From positions 1 through 57,831 of the forward strand of contig MGIS01000023.1 of the NCBI GenBank assembly GCA_001793865.1: a stretch of DNA of 57,831 nucleotides, read 5' to 3'. Shown one piece after another: positions 1,296-46,445 of this stretch. The position numbers were made by a program, and so were the translations under genes. The stretch comes from Candidatus Wolfebacteria bacterium RIFCSPLOWO2_01_FULL_47_17b. GTDB taxonomy: Bacteria > Patescibacteriota > Minisyncoccia > UBA6257 > JAGOQP01. The first letter of the stretch is position 1. Each line of letters opens with the position of its first letter. The notes under the pieces were generated by a model, which worked only from the letters and a program-made list of their open reading frames with translations, searched no databases and was not told where the DNA came from.

Positions 1296-3176
1296 TTATT
1301 GCCGAATCCGTTTTTTGCTTTTGTATATGTACCAGCCGGTTCCGATAAGCACGAGCGCAAGGAACCACCACCAGATATTTCCTCCCTGGAACAGATCCAG
1401 GATAGTCGCGGTCTGCCGGCTGTTCTCTTCGCTTTCCTCCGGTGATTCCTGCGGCAATTCCTGCGGCGTGGGCGTAATGAGCGTTAATTCCTCGAACGAA
1501 GATGCCGCCGTCGGCGTCGGGTTTATTCCCGCACTCTGACTCTGCGCAACAAATAATACAGGGGAAGGCGTAAACAAGGCTGTTTGCGGTGTTTGGGATG
1601 GTTCGGGGCTTGGAGATGTCCGCGCTCTGCTCCCGCCGCTTGTCGTTCCTCGTCCCGAAGAATCGTCTTGCTCCGGAGATGGGGTTGGTGTGACGGCAGT
1701 AGAAGTAGACATTTCACCTCCCACTGTCTCGGGGGACGCGCTTGAAATGGCGCGGAAATAATACATGGTTCCTGACTCAAGGTCCGAGATCGCCACCGAG
1801 TGACTGATCACTTTCGGATCCACGTCTGCTTCGTCGGTTGAAAATGGATATCCGTAGTTCGGAGATTCGCCCAGTTCTGCGTCTGAAATTGAACTGGTTC
1901 CGTATACGACGCGGCTTGTCGCGGGCTTGTCGGTCGTCCACGTGAACGTAAATCCGCTATCGGTGATTTCCGTGGTTTCTTCATCTGAAATCTGAACCTG
2001 ATTTCCTTCCGATTCCGCGTACACACTGCACTCTCCAGCCATATTGCAGTATTCAAACGCAATCCACTCCACGGAGCGGGCGACGTTGGAAACTCGCACT
2101 TCATCCAGAATACCGTCTAGCGGATATTGGTTCACCGGGTCATCTTCGTCACTGCTTCTCCCGAGCGCAAGCTTTGCAGATCCTGTTGCTATAGAAAATA
2201 TTTCATCCTTTGCCGCGTCCTCCTCTCCATTTATGAATAGTTTTTGAGCACTGCCATCGTACGTCCCGATAAGCAGATACCATTCATTAAGAGGGATGAC
2301 GTTTGCGCCGGACACATAGGGATCCAATCTGCCGCCTCCGAATAAATAAAATTTGGATACTCCCTCATCATTATGATAGAGCTGGAAAATCCGCTTGCCG
2401 CCTAAGTTATCCCTCCACATAAGAACTGACGCGGGGGAGACAAACGATCGGGTCATGGCGAATGCTTCAACCGTTATCTGGGCGGGCGTGTCGAGTCCAT
2501 CGCTGTTTTCCATCTGCACGCGGTCGCTTTCTTCCTCTCCCCCGAAGCTAAGCGCGTTTCCGAGCGCTCCTTGCACCAGGTCCGTGCTTGTGAGTGTCGC
2601 GGATCCTGTGCCGTCCACATCGTTATCCGTGGAATCTTCTATTGTTTCCATTGGGTCCTGATTCAAATGCCACACGCCAAGGTAATGCTCATCCCAGACA
2701 TCTGCGGGACTTTGATCATCTTCGGCATCGGGATTTCCGTAATACATCCAGATGTGGTCGGCATCGGAGTTCTTGTCTATCTGCGGAACCTTGACCCAGG
2801 TGGTTGAGATTCCCGTTTCGTCCCACAGTTCTATTTCGTAGGGCAATTGGGTCGCATTATCCGAATCAAGAAAACGAATGTCCTGGCCCTGATCCTGCGT
2901 GTCGTCGTATGAGATAAGTAAGCCGGTAAGCTGGACGAGTGCGGGAAAATTAATGAGATTTTCGTTTTGTGCCGTTTCGGTCGTATCAAAAGTGATCTTG
3001 ATGCGATGAGAAAAGGCATCATTCCACCAGGCGTTTGAGATGACCTCCTCGGTGTCAGCGGATTCGTGTACATTCGCTTGTGCGTAGTGCGGAAGCATAA
3101 AAAACGAGAAGGCTAGCGCAAACACAAGCAGAAGCGTTCCGACTTTTACGACAGCCGATGATGTTGTTTTTTTCAT
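1296..3176 (-). CDS. surface protein: signal/TM, DUF2341-like + LamG (concanavalin-like) module, FN3-like domain, P/S/T linker, C-terminal TM anchor
   Basis: 626 aa. N-terminal hydrophobic segment. WWNDAFSHRIKITFD...DIRFLDSDNATQLPYEIE...HIWMYYGN is DUF2341-type. FN3-like TFTWTTDKPATSRVVYG...MYYFRAIS. C-terminus ILDLFQGGNIWWWFLALVLIGTGWYIYKSKKRIRQ. Confidence 0.85.
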   Translation of the reverse strand: MKKTTSSAVVKVGTLLLVFALAFSFFMLPHYAQANVHESADTEEVISNAWWNDAFSHRIKITFDTTETAQNENLINFPALVQLTGLLISYDDTQDQGQDIRFLDSDNATQLPYEIELWDETGISTTWVKVPQIDKNSDADHIWMYYGNPDAEDDQSPADVWDEHYLGVWHLNQDPMETIEDSTDNDVDGTGSATLTSTDLVQGALGNALSFGGEEESDRVQMENSDGLDTPAQITVEAFAMTRSFVSPASVLMWRDNLGGKRIFQLYHNDEGVSKFYLFGGGRLDPYVSGANVIPLNEWYLLIGTYDGSAQKLFINGEEDAAKDEIFSIATGSAKLALGRSSDEDDPVNQYPLDGILDEVRVSNVARSVEWIAFEYCNMAGECSVYAESEGNQVQISDEETTEITDSGFTFTWTTDKPATSRVVYGTSSISDAELGESPNYGYPFSTDEADVDPKVISHSVAISDLESGTMYYFRAISSASPETVGGEMSTSTAVTPTPSPEQDDSSGRGTTSGGSRARTSPSPEPSQTPQTALFTPSPVLFVAQSQSAGINPTPTAASSFEELTLITPTPQELPQESPEESEENSRQTATILDLFQGGNIWWWFLALVLIGTGWYIYKSKKRIRQ

Positions 3177-3184
3177 AGGCCTTT

Positions 3185-3880
3185 TTATCTATTTTTTTTG
3201 GTGGTGTATGCGTACCACCCGAATATGACAAGAATAAGTATAAACAGCCACATCCATATATCCCCTCCTTCAAACACCGATAGTATATTCGCGGCAAGCG
3301 ATTCTTCCTGCGCGTTTTCTTCTAATATGGGTTCTACGGATGTCAGGACTCTAATCCCGTTTTCGGCAAGGGGGCTTGCAGAAGCGGTCGGCTCAGGCGC
3401 CGCAACAACGGGTTCATTTATAGTGATGATTTCATAGTCCCCGCCCCTGGATGCCACCTGCACCGCCGCGCCTTCTCCCAGCACTTCCACTTCCGAAAGA
3501 TTTAAGGAAGCGGTTCCCCCGTTTCCGGCTCTAAGCGACAAGGTAAACAATGTTATGTCCGAATTTTGCGCCGCACAACCGGGGATGCCTATCAAGAAAT
3601 CCGGATCCGCGCATGTCGGCGCCGACTGCGGCACCAGCCCGTCCGATATTGTTATGCTTTGGCATGTGAGATTGGCAAACGTAACCCTTCCTTCAACCGC
3701 GCACACCTTGTTTTCCGATGTGGAAAGCTCAACCGAACCGCGCAGTAAAATGCCCGGCGTCAGCTGGGTTGCCGGCGGGAACACGTATAACAAGCTTTCG
3801 GCAAATGCCGCTCCGGTACTGCCCATGCCTGCGAAAGCCATTATTATTGCCACGCCGATTTTTATTTTCATGCTTTTCAT
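3185..3880 (-). CDS. secreted, C-terminally membrane-anchored cohesin-like beta-sandwich protein
   Basis: 231 aa. Signal peptide MKSMKIKIGVAIIMAFAGMGSTGAAFA, about 130-aa beta-rich domain, linker, C-terminus ILSVFEGGDIWMWLFILILVIFGWYAYTTKKNR. The cohesin assignment is from pattern memory only. Confidence 0.5.
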   Translation of the reverse strand: MKSMKIKIGVAIIMAFAGMGSTGAAFAESLLYVFPPATQLTPGILLRGSVELSTSENKVCAVEGRVTFANLTCQSITISDGLVPQSAPTCADPDFLIGIPGCAAQNSDITLFTLSLRAGNGGTASLNLSEVEVLGEGAAVQVASRGGDYEIITINEPVVAAPEPTASASPLAENGIRVLTSVEPILEENAQEESLAANILSVFEGGDIWMWLFILILVIFGWYAYTTKKNR

Positions 3881-12054: not shown

Positions 12055-12558
12055 TCAATTTTTTCTTAACCACCACACAGAAAACACAACGCACGGGACT
12101 CCTGTGATCCATGCCCAGAATTGGAACAGAGCATTATTTGGAAAGACCGATATTCCTTTTGGAACTGTTACATTAACAGAACTCTCTCCACTATCTAAGA
12201 GAGTTTCCCTTAATTTCATAAGCATATTACTTCTTTCTAAGGGAGTTACGTTCGCCGGCAATGAAACCAGTTCCTCGTAAGATTTTTTCAAATTGGAATA
12301 CCAGAACCCTAAGTCTTCACTTGGTGAATTGTAAAGTACAGAAGTATAACCCGATGTTAATCCTTCATGTTGTAGATAATCCAATACGGCTTTTAGTTCT
12401 TGTTTTGCAAGACCAACAGTATTCGCATCCGCGGCTCTTTTTAGCCTATCCTGACAATTAATGTTAAAAACAATATTGTCGTATATTCTTACGCCAGCCC
12501 AAATAACAAAGAGAGTAAGAAATATTAAACTGAGAGAGAACTGCGCTTTCCTTTCCAT
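12055..12558 (-). CDS. hypothetical membrane-anchored protein (167 aa)
   Basis: N-terminal TM LSLIFLTLFVIWAGV and C-terminal TM WAWITGVPCVVFSVWW. Confidence 0.65.
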   Translation of the reverse strand: MERKAQFSLSLIFLTLFVIWAGVRIYDNIVFNINCQDRLKRAADANTVGLAKQELKAVLDYLQHEGLTSGYTSVLYNSPSEDLGFWYSNLKKSYEELVSLPANVTPLERSNMLMKLRETLLDSGESSVNVTVPKGISVFPNNALFQFWAWITGVPCVVFSVWWLRKN

Positions 12559-12652
12559 TTTCTGATTCCTTTTCTTGTTGGAAATGTTTAGCTAAATGGA
12601 ACAAACCTGTTGCTCATTTCATTCGCTCTTTAGAACCCCGCGGTTCTGATAT

Positions 12653-12682
12653 TACGCCAATGTTCTGCAGAACATTGGCGTA
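12653..12682. repeat. 30-bp perfect palindrome, core ccaatgttctgcagaacattgg
   Basis: tacgccaatgttctg|cagaacattggcgta. The same 22-bp core recurs at 26461-26482. Confidence 0.9.
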
Positions 12683-12700
12683 AAAAAACGGAGGGAATAC

Positions 12701-12729
12701 TTGAAATACTGCGTATTTTGGACTATATT
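12701..12729 (+). promoter_or_regulatory. promoter TTGAAA-17-TATATT (probable original tRNA-Lys promoter)
   Basis: ttgaaa 12701-12706, 17-nt spacer, tatatt 12724-12729. The predicted start lies about 10 nt before the tRNA 5' fragment. Confidence 0.6.
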
Positions 12730-12746
12730 TTTGTAGTAACGTATAC

Positions 12747-12790
12747 CCACCCATAGCTCATCCGCCAGCTGGCGGAGGTAGAGCTACTCC
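12747..12790 (+). pseudogene. displaced, decayed 5' half of tRNA-Lys
   Basis: ccaccca ta gctc a[tccgccagctggcgga]ggtagagc t actcc versus functional ccgccca ta gctc agttggtagagc t gctcc. Similarity ends at the anticodon-loop boundary. Confidence 0.65.
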
Positions 12791-12801
12791 GGAGCTGTCA
12801 T

Positions 12802-13053
12802 ATGTTTAAAGTCTATTGCATCTACAATTCCTATCATAAAAAGCTGTATGTGGGGCAAACAAAAGATATCAACGAACGTAAGGAGCTTCATAATAGCCAT
12901 ATTTTTAAAAATTCCTACACGGCACGTTTTGACGGGGAATGGAAGATAATATACTCTGAAACCGTTGAGTCGCGAGAAGCAGCGTTAAGAAGAGAAAAAC
13001 AATTGAAAAGTTTCCGAGGAAGAGAATTCCTGAAAACATTTATCCGCCCATAG
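12802..13053 (+). CDS. GIY-YIG nuclease (small stand-alone URI-domain type)
   Basis: 83 aa. KVYCIY..KKLYVGQT..R..ELHN...E..A..REKQLK. The last codons plus stop (atc cgc cca tag) overlap nt 1-10 of tRNA-Lys. Confidence 0.8.
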   Translation: MFKVYCIYNSYHKKLYVGQTKDINERKELHNSHIFKNSYTARFDGEWKIIYSETVESREAALRREKQLKSFRGREFLKTFIRP

Positions 13054-13116
13054 CTCAGTTGGTAGAGCTGCTCCCTTTTAAGGAGAAGGTCCCAGGTTCG
13101 AGTCCTGGTGGGCGGA
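13044..13116 (+). tRNA. tRNA-Lys(TTT)
   Basis: Acceptor ccgccca/tgggcgg, anticodon loop ctTTTaa, T-arm ccagg ttcgagt cctgg, discriminator a. Confidence 0.9.
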
Positions 13117-13171
13117 CTGAAACAAAGTTGGAACAAAAGGGGCCTTGCATTACACAAGGCTCCTATATTTT

Positions 13172-13801
13172 TTATCCGTCTTCCACCATACATGATCGCT
13201 GAATGACAACATCCAACGATCCAAAAAGAATCGTTTTAGAAAGAAACTCAACGGATTCAGTAATTTTTCCTTTTACACTTCTCTTTTTACTTTCGGCAAG
13301 GAACTCTTTAAAGTCACCTTGCGCGCACACAAGCCCCGGCAGATACCATATTTCCCAGAATCGAGAATCTCTGCCGCGGCGGGATCGTAGACATGCAAAA
13401 CCGAAACTTTCCAATCTTTCCGCGTTTTCTTTGTAATTTTCAGGACTATAATGATATCCACACAAACTTGAGATATAGATGCTCGGAGAAATTAGGTGTC
13501 CAGAAATATCATCAAATTTGATCAGTTCTTTATCTTTAAATAATTCCCTTTGTTTTGCGGAGCTCCAGAATGGGAGCATATCTTCGTCCCGCGTAGGAGA
13601 AGGAAGTGGTTCTCTTCTTGGGTGCACTCGCAGTCGTCTATCATCGCCAGTGGTCACCCAGTTTCCTCCGCTAACAATCATTGCGGTCATATCTTCAAAT
13701 TCCTCTTTTGAAAGGCCTTCAATAGAGAGTCCGTTCCCAAAAGGATCATGAGAAGATTGTGTTGACCCAGAGATGCGTACAATCTTTTTATTTTCCGACA
13801 T
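13172..13801 (-). CDS. hypothetical protein (209 aa)
   Basis: ORF only, no motif recognised. Confidence 0.6.
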   Translation of the reverse strand: MSENKKIVRISGSTQSSHDPFGNGLSIEGLSKEEFEDMTAMIVSGGNWVTTGDDRRLRVHPRREPLPSPTRDEDMLPFWSSAKQRELFKDKELIKFDDISGHLISPSIYISSLCGYHYSPENYKENAERLESFGFACLRSRRGRDSRFWEIWYLPGLVCAQGDFKEFLAESKKRSVKGKITESVEFLSKTILFGSLDVVIQRSCMVEDG

Positions 13802-25635: not shown

Positions 25636-25660
25636 GTGGTCAAGGTTTAACCTTGACCAC
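25636..25660. terminator. hairpin shared by the methyltransferase gene and the tRNA-Glu unit
   Basis: gtggtcaagg tttaa ccttgaccac. Confidence 0.55.
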
Positions 25661-25668
25661 TAAAGAAA

Positions 25669-25829
25669 ATCCCATCGGGAATCTCACAACTTCGTTTCAC
25701 GAAGTTTTCAAAACCCTCGGTTTTGAATAATTTCCTACACGAAAACTTACAAAGTTTTCGACCTTTCAAGATTCGAATCCCGAGGAATCATACAAAACAA
25801 AATCCGCCATAAAGGCGGATTTTGTTTTG
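25669..25829 (-). ncRNA. tRNA-3'-appended structured module, copy D (after tRNA-Glu)
   Basis: Block-wise homologous to 41047-41207. Identical 22-nt hairpin attcaaaaccgagggttttgaa (25707-25728). Ends gtgagattcccgatggg, repeating the tRNA-Glu 3' end. Unclassified. Confidence 0.5.
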
Positions 25830-25904
25830 TGACCCCATCGGGATTCGAACCCGAGTTCCAGGAATGAGAATCCTGTGTCCTAGACCGGACTAGACGATAG
25901 GGCC
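25830..25904 (-). tRNA. tRNA-Glu(CTC)
   Basis: ggcccta tc gtc tagtccggtctag gac a cagga ttCTCat tcctg gaac tcggg ttcgaat cccga tggggtc a. Confidence 0.88.
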
Positions 25905-40318: not shown

Positions 40319-40945
40319 TCACTCCGCCGGTTGGCGGATCACCAACGGCACAAACCTAAAGCCAAAAAATTCTTTTTTGGTAAATTCCTGTTTGCCCGTT
40401 TTTTCCAGAAGCACAATCCGCTCATCCAACGGAGCCACGATTCGCCCGCCTATTGCTACCTGTTCTTGCCATGCGGCAGGTATTTCCTCCGCGGAGGCTC
40501 CCGCGATTATTTTATCGTAGGGGGCTTTTTCTTCATATCCTTTTGACCCGTCACTGTGTATAAACTCGATTCGTTGCGCAAGATTCGGATACACCGTGGC
40601 GTTTTGTTTCGCGAATTCATGCAGTTCGTGAATTCGTTCAATTGATACGACTTCACTTCCCGAAAGAAACGAGAGAAGTGCCGATTGCCAACCCGAACCG
40701 CTACCTATCTCAAGCACCCTATCCCCTGCACGCACCTGCAATAACTCCAACATAAAAGCAACCACAAGCGGCTGGGAGATGGTTTGTTCGAATCCAATGG
40801 GAAGTGGAATATTCTCATATGCGCGTTCTTTCATATCTGCCGATACAAAATGCTCCCGTGCTACGCTTAAAAACGCATCCTCCACGCGCGGCGTTTTTAT
40901 ATAGCCGAGTTTTATAAGCTCTTCCACCAGCTGTTCGTTTGTCAT
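40319..40945 (-). CDS. pcm: protein-L-isoaspartate O-methyltransferase
   Basis: Start MTNEQLVEEL at 40945 (the track start 41041 overlaps tRNA-Trp). VLEIGSGSGWQSALL SAM motif. Confidence 0.88.
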   Translation of the reverse strand: MTNEQLVEELIKLGYIKTPRVEDAFLSVAREHFVSADMKERAYENIPLPIGFEQTISQPLVVAFMLELLQVRAGDRVLEIGSGSGWQSALLSFLSGSEVVSIERIHELHEFAKQNATVYPNLAQRIEFIHSDGSKGYEEKAPYDKIIAGASAEEIPAAWQEQVAIGGRIVAPLDERIVLLEKTGKQEFTKKEFFGFRFVPLVIRQPAE

Positions 40946-40975
40946 ATAGTTCAATATATCATAGAATAAGGGCGT

Positions 40976-41046
40976 TGGGAGATTAGTTAAGTGGTATAAC
41001 GGGCGTCTCCAAAACGCCGGTCGGGGGTTCGATTCCCTCATCTCCC
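40976..41046 (+). tRNA. tRNA-Trp(CCA)
   Basis: gggagat ta gtta agtggta taac g ggcgt ctCCAaa acgcc ggtc ggggg ttcgatt ccctc atctccc g. Confidence 0.9.
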
Positions 41047-41207
41047 GCAGAGGATAAGGGAGTGTACGGAATCGAATCTTTGGGGGTCGGGGTATTTGTA
41101 AATACCCCGTGTAGGGATCCGCCGGATGGCGGAATTCAAAACCGAGGGTTTTGAACGAAGCTCCGCCAGCTGGTGGAGCGGAGGTGAGATTCCCTCATCT
41201 CCCGCAG
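41047..41207 (+). ncRNA. tRNA-3'-appended structured module, copy C (after tRNA-Trp)
   Basis: Four hairpins. Ends in an exact 21-nt repeat of the tRNA-Trp 3' end (41030-41050 = 41187-41207). Homologous to 25669-25829. Unclassified. Confidence 0.5.
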
Positions 41208-41237
41208 AAAAAATAACCCCATGGGGTTATTTTTTTG
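41207..41237. terminator. bidirectional terminator (tRNA-Trp unit / rpmG)
   Basis: aaaaaataacccc aat ggggttattttttt. The rpmG stop codon lies in the right arm. Confidence 0.75.
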
Positions 41238-46399: not shown

Positions 46400-46445
46400 A
46401 AAAACAGCCCTTCCGCTGGTTGGCGGAGGACTGTTTTTCTAAACA

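Follow-up and report, generated by a model that had tools for sequence, protein, structure and literature searches.

How does a nuclease gene come to end inside the tRNA gene that follows it? The question is raised by a stretch of 57,831 nucleotides (the window, by which we mean this stretch at its full length) from Candidatus Wolfebacteria bacterium RIFCSPLOWO2_01_FULL_47_17b (assembly GCA_001793865.1, contig MGIS01000023.1, positions 1 to 57,831 of the forward strand). There, an open reading frame (ORF) for an 83-amino-acid GIY-YIG protein (12802-13053; Pfam PF01541) stands between a tRNA-like 5′ fragment (12747-12790) and an intact, functional-looking tRNA-Lys(UUU) gene (13044-13116, Rfam 68.3 bits; 13044-13117 according to ARAGORN), all on the plus strand. 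An earlier note on this DNA had described the promoter, the fragment, the ORF, the tRNA-Lys and the overlap between the latter two, all of which we find where the note placed them, and had proposed a homing-like invasion of the tRNA gene. Having compared the locus with its relatives, we consider it likely, although far from certain, that the ORF belongs to a selfish cassette of the homing type, which targets tRNA genes, presumably by cutting them, and restores them by partial duplication.

The tRNA-Lys locus and its empty counterparts

The unit opens with a sigma-70-like promoter-like site, TTGAAA-17-TATATT (12701-12729, plus strand, 10/12 matches), and the tRNA-like fragment starts 17 nt past it. 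The fragment consists of the acceptor strand CCACCCA (12747-12753) followed by TA, the D-stem strand GCTC (12756-12759) followed by A, a perfect 16-nt palindrome TCCGCCAGCTGGCGGA (TCCGCC-AGCT-GGCGGA, 12761-12776) that replaces D-loop nt 15-17, the sequence GGTAGAGC (12777-12784) followed by T, and the anticodon-stem strand ACTCC (12786-12790). GGAG (12791-12794), located 7 nt ahead of the ATG, is a likely Shine-Dalgarno sequence. The 3′ end of the ORF, ATC CGC CCA TAG, overlaps nt 1-10 of the tRNA, and the TAG (13051-13053) corresponds to tRNA nt 8-10 (U8-A9-G10), so that the ORF has no stop codon of its own and is supplied with one by tRNA-Lys. A terminator-like hairpin (13138-13164) with a T run (13138-13174 as a whole, plus strand) ends the transcription unit. 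No second good plus-strand promoter site is present within 12300-13500, and, given that the tRNA-Lys has no promoter-like site of its own, it is natural to suppose, with the earlier note, that the ORF and the tRNA would be read in one transcript from the old tRNA promoter and that the tRNA would be excised from an mRNA.

The closest available relatives, located through the neighbouring DnaJ gene, include two loci (handles of the form L091 denote loci and contigs of the survey) in which tRNA-Lys(UUU) lies directly behind the promoter, with no ORF, duplicate or hairpin, namely, L091 (DnaJ 76% identical) and L093 (70%). In the empty site of L091, TTGACC-17-TATATT and 18 nt precede tRNA-Lys; in L091 and in the filled L095 (see below), the promoter lies 16-18 nt before the first nucleotide of either tRNA-Lys or its displaced copy. 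The tRNA-Lys of L091 and L093 is nearly identical to that of the window, the main difference being a flip between G1-C72 and, in the window, C1-G72. Because the closest relatives have empty sites, the ORF together with the second copy of the tRNA 5′ part represents an insertion into a pre-existing tRNA-Lys gene, and because the fragment lies at the native promoter distance, it represents the displaced original 5′ end, both as the earlier note had surmised. The only close relative of the ORF (72% identical) resides in L095, where the same cassette adjoins tRNA-Lys(CUU) behind the promoter TTGACG-17-TAATGT. Hence, at this conserved site, the window and L095 are filled, and L091 and L093 are empty. 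In L095, the acceptor is CCACCCA in both copies, half of the hairpin is deleted, and the junction GCTGTCAT-ATG is the same as in the window. The window fragment keeps CCACCCA next to a working tRNA with CCGCCCA/..CGG and, as L095 has CCACCCA in both copies, retains the older state; in the lineage of the window, it is best read as a slowly decaying relic. Remoulding of a tRNA-Asn into tRNA-Lys by a G34-to-U change can be dismissed, as the relatives have an orthologous, near-identical tRNA-Lys and the window has a separate tRNA-Asn.

The fragment differs from the functional tRNA-Lys at two positions (A3 and A27) and matches its acceptor at 6/7 positions. Its raw alignment score to tRNA-Lys, 32.5, is not distinctive because the D-arm is common to tRNAs, and other true tRNAs of the window score no lower (38.5 for tRNA-Thr). 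The identity of the fragment as Lys therefore appears from the acceptor match (6/7), from T26 with the anticodon stem and from the location 16-17 nt past the promoter, at which the relatives have the first nucleotide of tRNA-Lys. Chance similarity is ruled out by the recurrence of such fragments across loci and by the match of each to its own tRNA.

The arrangement superficially resembles an interrupted tRNA gene, in which the fragment would be a 5′ exon or the half of a split tRNA to be joined to the downstream 3′ half, with the ORF contained in an intron. The fragment indeed ends near the anticodon loop, where bacterial tRNA group I introns reside; some tRNAs of the Candidate Phyla Radiation (CPR) are mentioned, in passing only, as having such introns (PMC8172020), and about 10 related tRNA-Asn genes carry group I-like introns after CTGT. 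However, the downstream tRNA is complete (68 bits), the fragment bears a 16-nt hairpin in its D-loop and its A3 would mispair with C70, and the related group I-like introns lie in the downstream intact copy, apart from the ORF. An Rfam search of 12300-13500 yielded no match besides the complete downstream tRNA and thus no intron ribozyme, in line with the absence of an intron assumed from the start, and only tRNAs were matched across the whole window and the side elements described below. We give this explanation next to no chance.

Equally far-fetched is an attachment-site scar of a larger, integrase-borne island once resident in the tRNA gene. Partial tRNA duplicates are the classic sign of integration into tRNA genes, and integrase islands likewise target a tRNA gene and restore it by an element-borne duplicate. 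Nevertheless, the insert measures only about 300 bp, it encodes a nuclease instead of an integrase, the 5′ rather than the 3′ part of the tRNA is duplicated in CPR, and the same compact layout occurs in hundreds of genomes. The neighbouring genes, which encode an NYN-domain protein, three proteins of unknown function without Pfam matches and DnaJ, include no integrase, transposase or recombinase. As judged from these comparisons, the cassette is neither an intron, nor a split tRNA, nor an integrase scar.

A family of hairpin-tagged cassettes

A protein search retrieved 117 relatives, nearly all of 82-88 amino acids, from CPR/Patescibacteria, and a scan of GTDB, with one genome per species, yielded 503 loci, the best 80 of which were used for the locus counts given here. 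Approximately 150 relatives share one layout: a tagged copy of the local tRNA 5′ part, the ORF and the intact tRNA. In 66/80 loci, ARAGORN places tRNA-Asn(GTT) at the ORF end or overlapping it; L038 has tRNA-Thr(CGT) in this position, and about 10 further loci run into TAGCTCAG, where the tRNA is interrupted by a group I-like intron behind CTGT or cut off by the contig end. The conserved C-terminus of the relatives, I-P-x-stop, is encoded by ATT CCN NNN TAG, that is, by nt -2 to 10 of tRNA-Asn. The stop codon coincides with tRNA nt 8-10 in about 51 of the 80 loci and with the TAG of GGTAGAGC (nt 19-21) in about 12, and a few ORFs stop at the TAA of the anticodon loop; because the stops fall within the tRNA, most ORFs of the family have no stop codon of their own.

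Group I-like introns of approximately 200-250 nt are present in the anticodon loop of tRNA-Asn, after CTGT (between nt 35 and 36), downstream of the ORF in L009, L011, L014, L015, L019, L036, L047, L049, L054 and L074, and ARAGORN misses such intron-bearing CPR tRNA-Asn genes. In L015, the family palindrome recurs within the intron, at about 2837.

Upstream of the ATG, about 76-79 of the 80 loci display the local acceptor strand and D-stem, TCCGCC-NNNN-GGCGGA in place of three D-loop nucleotides, and then GGTAGAGC, with the hairpin 11-62 nt ahead of the ATG. Beyond GGTAGAGC, the displaced copies continue for a variable length into the local anticodon stem, so that they span from the leader to about nt 25-38, and the tagged arm folds as the D-stem plus the hairpin. 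Variation of the hairpin is almost confined to the central four nucleotides (AGCT in 56 loci, AACT in 10, AGCC in 6 and AGTT in 4), and the stem changes in L010 and L020 are compensatory. The displaced 13-mer is identical to that of its own tRNA in 53/79 loci, compared with 6% for non-self pairs, and the displaced copy tracks local D-stem variants such as TAGCGC/GGTAGCGC. The hairpin, which the earlier note had taken for part of a decayed fragment, is thus a conserved hallmark of the whole family and not a product of decay.

The converse search, starting from 80 metagenome sites with the hairpin followed by GGTAGAGC, found the ORF downstream in 66; of these, 50 adjoin tRNA-Asn, 6 tRNA-Lys and 1 tRNA-Phe, and 9 have no called tRNA. 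Eleven of the 80 sites are ORF-less units directly before an intact tRNA, mostly tRNA-Thr. Because about 76-79 of 80 genome loci show the combination of fragment, hairpin, ORF and tRNA, as do 66 of 80 metagenome sites, chance can be excluded as its source, and the relatives almost always abut a tRNA with a fragment duplicate, as opposed to the unrelated genes that would have told against the original proposal. That proposal had singled out tRNA-Lys as the target, which is indeed occupied in the window; judging by the counts, however, the usual home of the family is tRNA-Asn(GUU), with Lys as a secondary target and Thr and Phe as occasional ones. Since the Lys-type ORFs from metagenomes are only 45-54% identical to the window ORF and Asn-type ORFs reach 69%, tRNA-Lys has been entered more than once.

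Cassettes are thus known from the tRNA genes of four species (Asn, Lys, Thr and Phe), with duplicates of the target's own type. Accordingly, of the notion that the cassette brought along a replacement 5′ half, the insertion accompanied by a duplicate stands, but a simple imported half does not, as both copies are of the target type in all four species. Some units are arranged in series, and because tandem ORFs are only 42% (L031) or 59% (L042) identical at the amino acid level, one and the same site has been invaded repeatedly. In L031 (2084-2453), the first ORF (42% identical), which belongs to a second GIY-YIG subfamily, occupies the same tRNA-Asn site and also ends in IIPR-stop; its displaced fragment carries other hairpins, CTGCCCGCC...GGGCGGGTAG and CCTGCC..GGCAGG, which suggests that hairpin and nuclease are matched pairs. 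L003 (about 985-1000) and L092 belong to the same observation. A second hairpin-tagged fragment, with the ORF deleted, is present in L001, L048, L176 and L177, and decayed copies include L095 (half a hairpin), L021, L013 and L064. Fifteen of the 80 contigs end 47-318 nt past the ORF, at the tRNA or just beyond it, and these breaks suggest heterogeneity at the tRNA.

Several related arrangements were encountered. In L007, a third, more distant GIY-YIG ORF (3019-3276; 102 amino acids as called, 29% identical) follows the same tRNA-Asn at a distance of about 200 nt, with two direct repeats of GTACCGGCTGGTACAGGGCGGAGCCACGGAAAAC ahead of it. In the metagenome contig L118, the order is a hairpin-tagged 5′ fragment of one tRNA-Thr gene (acceptor GCCGTTG), another tRNA-Thr, which is complete, and a decaying 3′ part, the acceptor strand of which, CAACGGC, pairs with the fragment, so that one tRNA gene is split by another. 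Two other metagenome contigs, L146 and L152, show a similar order of tagged fragment, complete tRNA-Thr and tRNA-3′-like sequence, with no matching acceptor strand found, and L148 and L167 contain 5′-truncated pseudogenes of tRNA-Thr whose D-loop bears the palindrome.

The ORFs are under purifying selection, with a median ratio of nonsynonymous to synonymous substitution rates (dN/dS) of 0.12 over 54 pairs and of 0.205 between the window and L095. When close pairs are compared, identity is 58-80% at third codon positions and near random in the flank that precedes the displaced copy, as against about 93% for the displaced 15-mer and 81-100% for the hairpin. Displaced copy and hairpin are thus kept by selection, gene conversion or renewed insertion. 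Such conservation beyond neutral expectation, the strong selection on the ORF, the presence of a relative in at least 503 species representatives and the clustering of ORFs by host taxon would also befit a domesticated CPR nuclease that benefits its host and is co-transcribed with tRNA-Asn, be it for repair, tRNA-gene maintenance or regulation, with the fragment an old rearrangement retained as a 5′ leader. An internal TATAAT is found between the hairpin and the ATG in about 40% of the other loci, most often (25/49) exactly 6 nt before the ATG; the figure for shuffled controls is 9.5%. This suggests a leaderless transcript from a promoter within the cassette, and such expression could well be regulated. 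We nonetheless regard domestication as improbable, considering that the site is empty in close relatives and that the window's own tRNA-Asn (1034-1106) carries no such ORF, that divergent copies are arrayed at one site, that cassettes sit in four tRNA species beside fresh duplicates of the target's type, that decayed copies exist, and that a mirror-image insertion exists in another phylum.

This mirror image is seen in Ignavibacteria, where distant homologs (44-51% identical) sit after a tRNA and not before it. In the cultured Ignavibacterium album JCM 16511 (L225, 1085-2215; CP003418.1, about 2.972-2.975 Mb), the promoter, an intact tRNA-Asn and a terminator are followed by three units, each composed of an 85-amino-acid ORF, GGTTGCAGGTTCGA-TCCGTTAGCTAACGGA-CTGCTCGCGGAGCCA and its own copy of the terminator, with 83-91% identity among the three ORFs. 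In the tagged piece, a displaced 3′ fragment of the tRNA, a 16-nt palindrome takes the place of GTC in the T-loop. The palindromes of the two clades are homologous, TCCG-CC-AGCT-GG-CGGA in CPR and TCCG-TT-AGCT-AA-CGGA in Ignavibacteria differing by a pair of compensatory changes. The same mirror plan is found in L219 and L220 (Asn) and in L222 and L223 (Met). The rule common to both clades is that the 16-nt palindrome replaces three loop nucleotides in a tRNA arm of the displaced fragment.

The nuclease and the palindrome

The product of the window ORF matches PF01541 with 48 bits (cut-off 22.6; E = 1.6e-12), and the residues Y5, Y16, G18, R26, H30 and E65, which correspond to the GIY Tyr, the YIG Tyr-x-Gly and the Arg, His and Glu of the family, are invariant in 40 sequences. 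A confident AlphaFold model (predicted local distance difference test, pLDDT, 93.7) has the elements E-E-H-E-H-H, in agreement with the beta-beta-alpha-beta-alpha fold of GIY-YIG enzymes. Profile searches of solved structures returned UPF0213 proteins first (EF2693 and BH0048; top matches 1ywl and 1zg2 at E about 1e-4), followed by the I-TevI catalytic domain and Slx1, and Foldseek matched UPF0213, Slx1, HIGLE and I-TevI; the best structural matches are BH0048 (1zg2), the Slx1 nuclease domain and HIGLE, with template modelling (TM) scores of 0.55-0.68 for 1zg2 and Slx1 and of 0.61-0.67 for the Slx1 nuclease domain, and 6seh and 7cq3 are also among the best sequence or fold matches. The protein is accordingly predicted to be a single-domain nuclease of the YhbQ/UPF0213/Slx1-like GIY-YIG type, a subgroup with single domains of 80-100 amino acids; the nucleases encoded by the cassettes measure 82-85 amino acids. 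In size and catalytic residues it equals UPF0213/YhbQ (COG2827) proteins and the URI domain of Slx1, but Slx1 needs Slx4 and a RING/PHD domain, whereas the window protein is a single domain. The wider protein family comprises 13,706 cluster representatives at E <= 1e-3. A literature search on COG2827/UPF0213/YhbQ returned no paper on function, the bacterial matches being structural-genomics entries named 'hypothetical UPF0213 protein', and, to our knowledge, no link of YhbQ/UPF0213/Slx1 proteins to tRNA genes or to a cognate hairpin has been reported.

The family palindrome is not restricted to the cassette. Within the window, copies start at 12761, 40323, 41118 and 41162, with a weaker one at 46412, against an estimated 0.007 or so expected by chance. 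The copy at 40323-40338, TCCGCCGGTTGGCGGA, lies at the 3′ end of an ORF on the minus strand (40319-41041), and the weaker copy, TCCGCTGGTTGGCGGA (46412-46427), lies within a terminator-like hairpin. The two remaining copies, TCCGCCGGATGGCGGA at 41118 and the nested TCCGCCAGCTGGTGGA at 41162, belong to a hairpin-rich insert of about 140 nt (41049-41210, plus strand) behind tRNA-Trp (40977-41048). The insert is without a match in Rfam and closes with a second copy of the 3′ end of tRNA-Trp (GATTCCCTCATCTCCCGCAGA, 41187-41207), behind which a terminator is found. A homologous element after tRNA-Lys in L093 (7140-7290) has neither palindrome, and L092 has one, at the spot equivalent to 41118.

It could therefore be asked whether the real substrate of the nuclease is the 16-nt hairpin itself, as single-stranded DNA or cruciform, in a system akin to repetitive extragenic palindromes and their associated tyrosine transposases (REP/RAYT), whereby the enzyme would spread or maintain hairpins and the tRNA duplications would be by-products of breaks at hairpin-like tRNA arms. 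As in REP/RAYT, a short conserved palindrome is paired with a nuclease gene that it flanks, and, at least in the window, solo copies occur elsewhere in the genome. The closest folds, Slx1 and UPF0213, are given as structure-specific nucleases; ORF and hairpin occur together in more than one phylum and in either architecture, the hairpin showing compensatory changes, and the second GIY-YIG subfamily (L031 ORF1) has different hairpins. Furthermore, hairpins can be nested or extended (TCCGCC TCCGCC ... GGCGGA GGCGGA), solo hairpins reside in another conserved RNA of the window yet are absent from its L093 homolog, one hairpin lies inside the L015 group I intron, and hairpin-tagged tRNA-Thr fragments exist without the ORF. 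On the other hand, in other genomes the few palindromes away from the cassette stay close to it, and even the window holds only 4-5 copies in 57.8 kb; RAYTs are HUH/Y1 rather than GIY-YIG enzymes, and REPs are intergenic and numerous, whereas the hairpins of the cassettes are few and located in tRNA-arm loops. There is no known mechanism by which a GIY-YIG enzyme would insert a 16-nt palindrome, and such a scheme alone leaves the constant location of the ORF in a tRNA gene unexplained. We thus find it an unlikely account, albeit one to be taken seriously.

Other roles for the hairpin were considered. A function as an operator or as the -35 element of an internal promoter is compatible with the TATAAT located 6 nt before the ATG in CPR but would not be general, since the hairpin follows the ORF in Ignavibacteria. 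Filler copied from the flanks, in the manner of P nucleotides, is out, as the sequence is unrelated to the flanks and conserved across phyla.

Two further tRNA genes of the window are accompanied by structured elements. The element associated with tRNA-Trp has a second copy on the minus strand (about 25660-25790), behind tRNA-Glu (25829-25904) and the terminator of the latter, and the core, ATTCAAAACCGAGGGTTTTGAA, is identical over 22 nt. This second copy starts with the T-arm-like GGGATTCGAATC, ends with ATTCCCGATGGGA, which copies the 3′ end of tRNA-Glu, and resembles a displaced 3′ fragment of a tRNA whose T-loop has received about 110 nt. Upstream of tRNA-Asn (1034-1106), the region 859-1033 contains a partial copy of the tRNA-Asn 5′ part, TCCCCGGTAGC (866-876), preceded by TCTGCGC, which is complementary to the tRNA-Asn 3′ trailer GCGCAGA. 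Behind this partial copy come another hairpin, GTTAAAGCA...TGCTTTAAC, and an insert of about 157 nt that is structured and non-coding. With no ORF, no Rfam match and no blastn match in the other loci, this insert may be the remnant of another tRNA-targeting element. No other GIY-YIG copy is present in the window.

Two observations pertain to the surroundings of the cassette. A perfect long palindrome, CGCCAATGTTCTGCAGAACATTGGCG (12649-12686), which could be an operator or a terminator, is situated just upstream of the tRNA promoter, between a divergent gene for a 167-amino-acid protein and the cassette. In L086, a contig with the exact ORF of the window, the downstream context differs, with the 167-amino-acid neighbour on the other side and strand and then a GH130 gene, which may reflect an inversion or a misassembly at the tRNA.

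Mechanism, precedents and implications

According to the homing-type reading, which we favour, the nuclease would cut the DNA encoding a conserved tRNA arm, which would be the D-arm for the CPR clade and the T-arm for that of Ignavibacteria; a precedent is set by T4 SegB, which reads the TpsiC arm. Repair of the break from a filled allele or a sister copy would then copy the cassette in, and the partial tRNA duplication would restore the essential gene. The hairpin might render the displaced arm uncuttable and, by interrupting the direct repeat, protect the cassette from deletion triggered by its own nuclease; alternatively, it could be the binding site of the nuclease. Tandem arrays might arise from continued cutting of the intact tRNA and unequal repair. 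In the window, cleavage by RNase P at the tRNA 5′ end would remove the last codons and the stop codon of the ORF, such that only the unprocessed precursor would give a normally terminated protein, a potential built-in brake on nuclease expression. The insertion point itself is ambiguous: the upstream copies reach at most nt 37/38, which fits the anticodon loop proposed in the earlier note, but the hairpin junctions in nested arrays and in Ignavibacteria fit the D-loop or the T-loop.

Comparison among loci shows insertion into tRNA genes, recurrence at the same place, repeated invasion and purifying selection, and the presence/absence pattern and repeated insertions bear out that part of the homing-endonuclease-like behaviour which the earlier note had foreseen. 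Several observations, however, weigh against this reading. Cleavage and its target site are inferred, and the whole protein is a bare catalytic domain of 83 amino acids, with no separate DNA-binding domain as in I-TevI or the Seg proteins and no obvious way to locate a specific site. In the filled allele, the arm of the displaced copy is disrupted by the hairpin, but the intact copy of the tRNA is unaltered and keeps any target that lies wholly within the tRNA, so that the element would cut its own host gene. Simple homing predicts chimeric tRNAs after jumps between tRNA species, yet both copies are of the target's type, and only L100 shows an Asn-like piece after the hairpin. The position of the hairpin varies (after nt 8, 10, 13 or 25), which also weakens the idea that it is the fixed left end of the insert, and the palindrome occurs alone in other RNAs and so may move independently of the ORF. 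A search for an empty allele in the same population, with one pattern and exact matching only, found none among metagenome contigs. The neighbour-joining tree of the ORFs has the shape of a star, and its clusters correspond to host taxa and acceptor types; much of the ORF history looks vertical or confined to lineages, which fits long vertical residence as well as homing. Finally, viral contigs yielded no close relatives, and with only 4 weak matches in IMG/VR (32-38% identity), carriage by phages can be set aside.

One of the nearest parallels is offered by T4 SegB, a free-standing GIY-YIG homing endonuclease encoded in a phage tRNA gene cluster, which recognizes a defined 27-bp site including an 11-bp TpsiC stem-loop motif and drives the inheritance of itself and of the neighbouring tRNA genes (PMC2330249). 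The cassette shares with SegB the GIY-YIG domain, independence of any intron or intein and a location among tRNA genes. The differences are nevertheless considerable: the 83-amino-acid protein has no room for a separate region that could read a 27-bp site, SegB is a phage gene that lies between genes, whereas the cassette is cellular and wedged into one, and SegB features no partial tRNA duplication, hairpin tag or overlap of ORF and tRNA, all three of which the cassette has. Free-standing GIY-YIG or LAGLIDADG ORFs of fungal mitochondria insert into a host gene at its end, for which they bring a replacement; the atp6-ORF of Allomyces is reportedly an example, attributed to Paquin, Laforest and Lang in 1994. 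Here, too, the mobile unit is a nuclease ORF with a part copy of its target, the displaced part stays behind as a pseudogene, and the ORF is fused to the host gene or overlaps it; however, the fungal ORFs target a protein gene and bring a foreign replacement, resulting in a hybrid gene, whereas the cassette targets a tRNA gene, leaves both copies of the target type and places a palindrome on the displaced one. In comparative terms, the cassette would class with free-standing homing endonuclease genes, if without a DNA-binding domain and with cleavage presumed. No published description of the cassette family was found in literature searches that included the palindrome sequences, and there is a real chance that the partnership of hairpin and nuclease is something new.

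More broadly, and only tentatively, it seems possible that the small YhbQ-type GIY-YIG proteins are the nucleases of an unrecognised class of mobile elements across phyla, which would target hairpin arms of tRNA genes (the D-arm in CPR, the T-arm in Ignavibacteria) and repair the gene by partial duplication, with a cognate 16-nt hairpin recognised by structure and mobilised in trans. If so, an enzyme of 83 amino acids would derive its specificity from DNA shape and not from a DNA-binding domain, and split, permuted-looking and fragment-flanked tRNA genes would arise by the same process.

The cassettes offer a concrete, testable role for a very large family of tiny nucleases annotated without a function, and indicate that colonisation of essential tRNA genes is widespread in CPR bacteria. 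In cases like that of the window, the tRNA would be obtainable only by transcription through a nuclease gene and excision from the mRNA. The cassettes would also explain ORFs that end inside tRNAs, half-fragments of tRNAs and contigs that break at tRNA-Asn, and could provide a natural route to split or fragment-flanked tRNA genes. Should DNA structure or the 16-nt hairpin be what the enzyme reads, the nuclease would be unusually small and programmable-looking, and a cultured carrier, Ignavibacterium album JCM 16511 with its three tandem copies, makes experiments possible.

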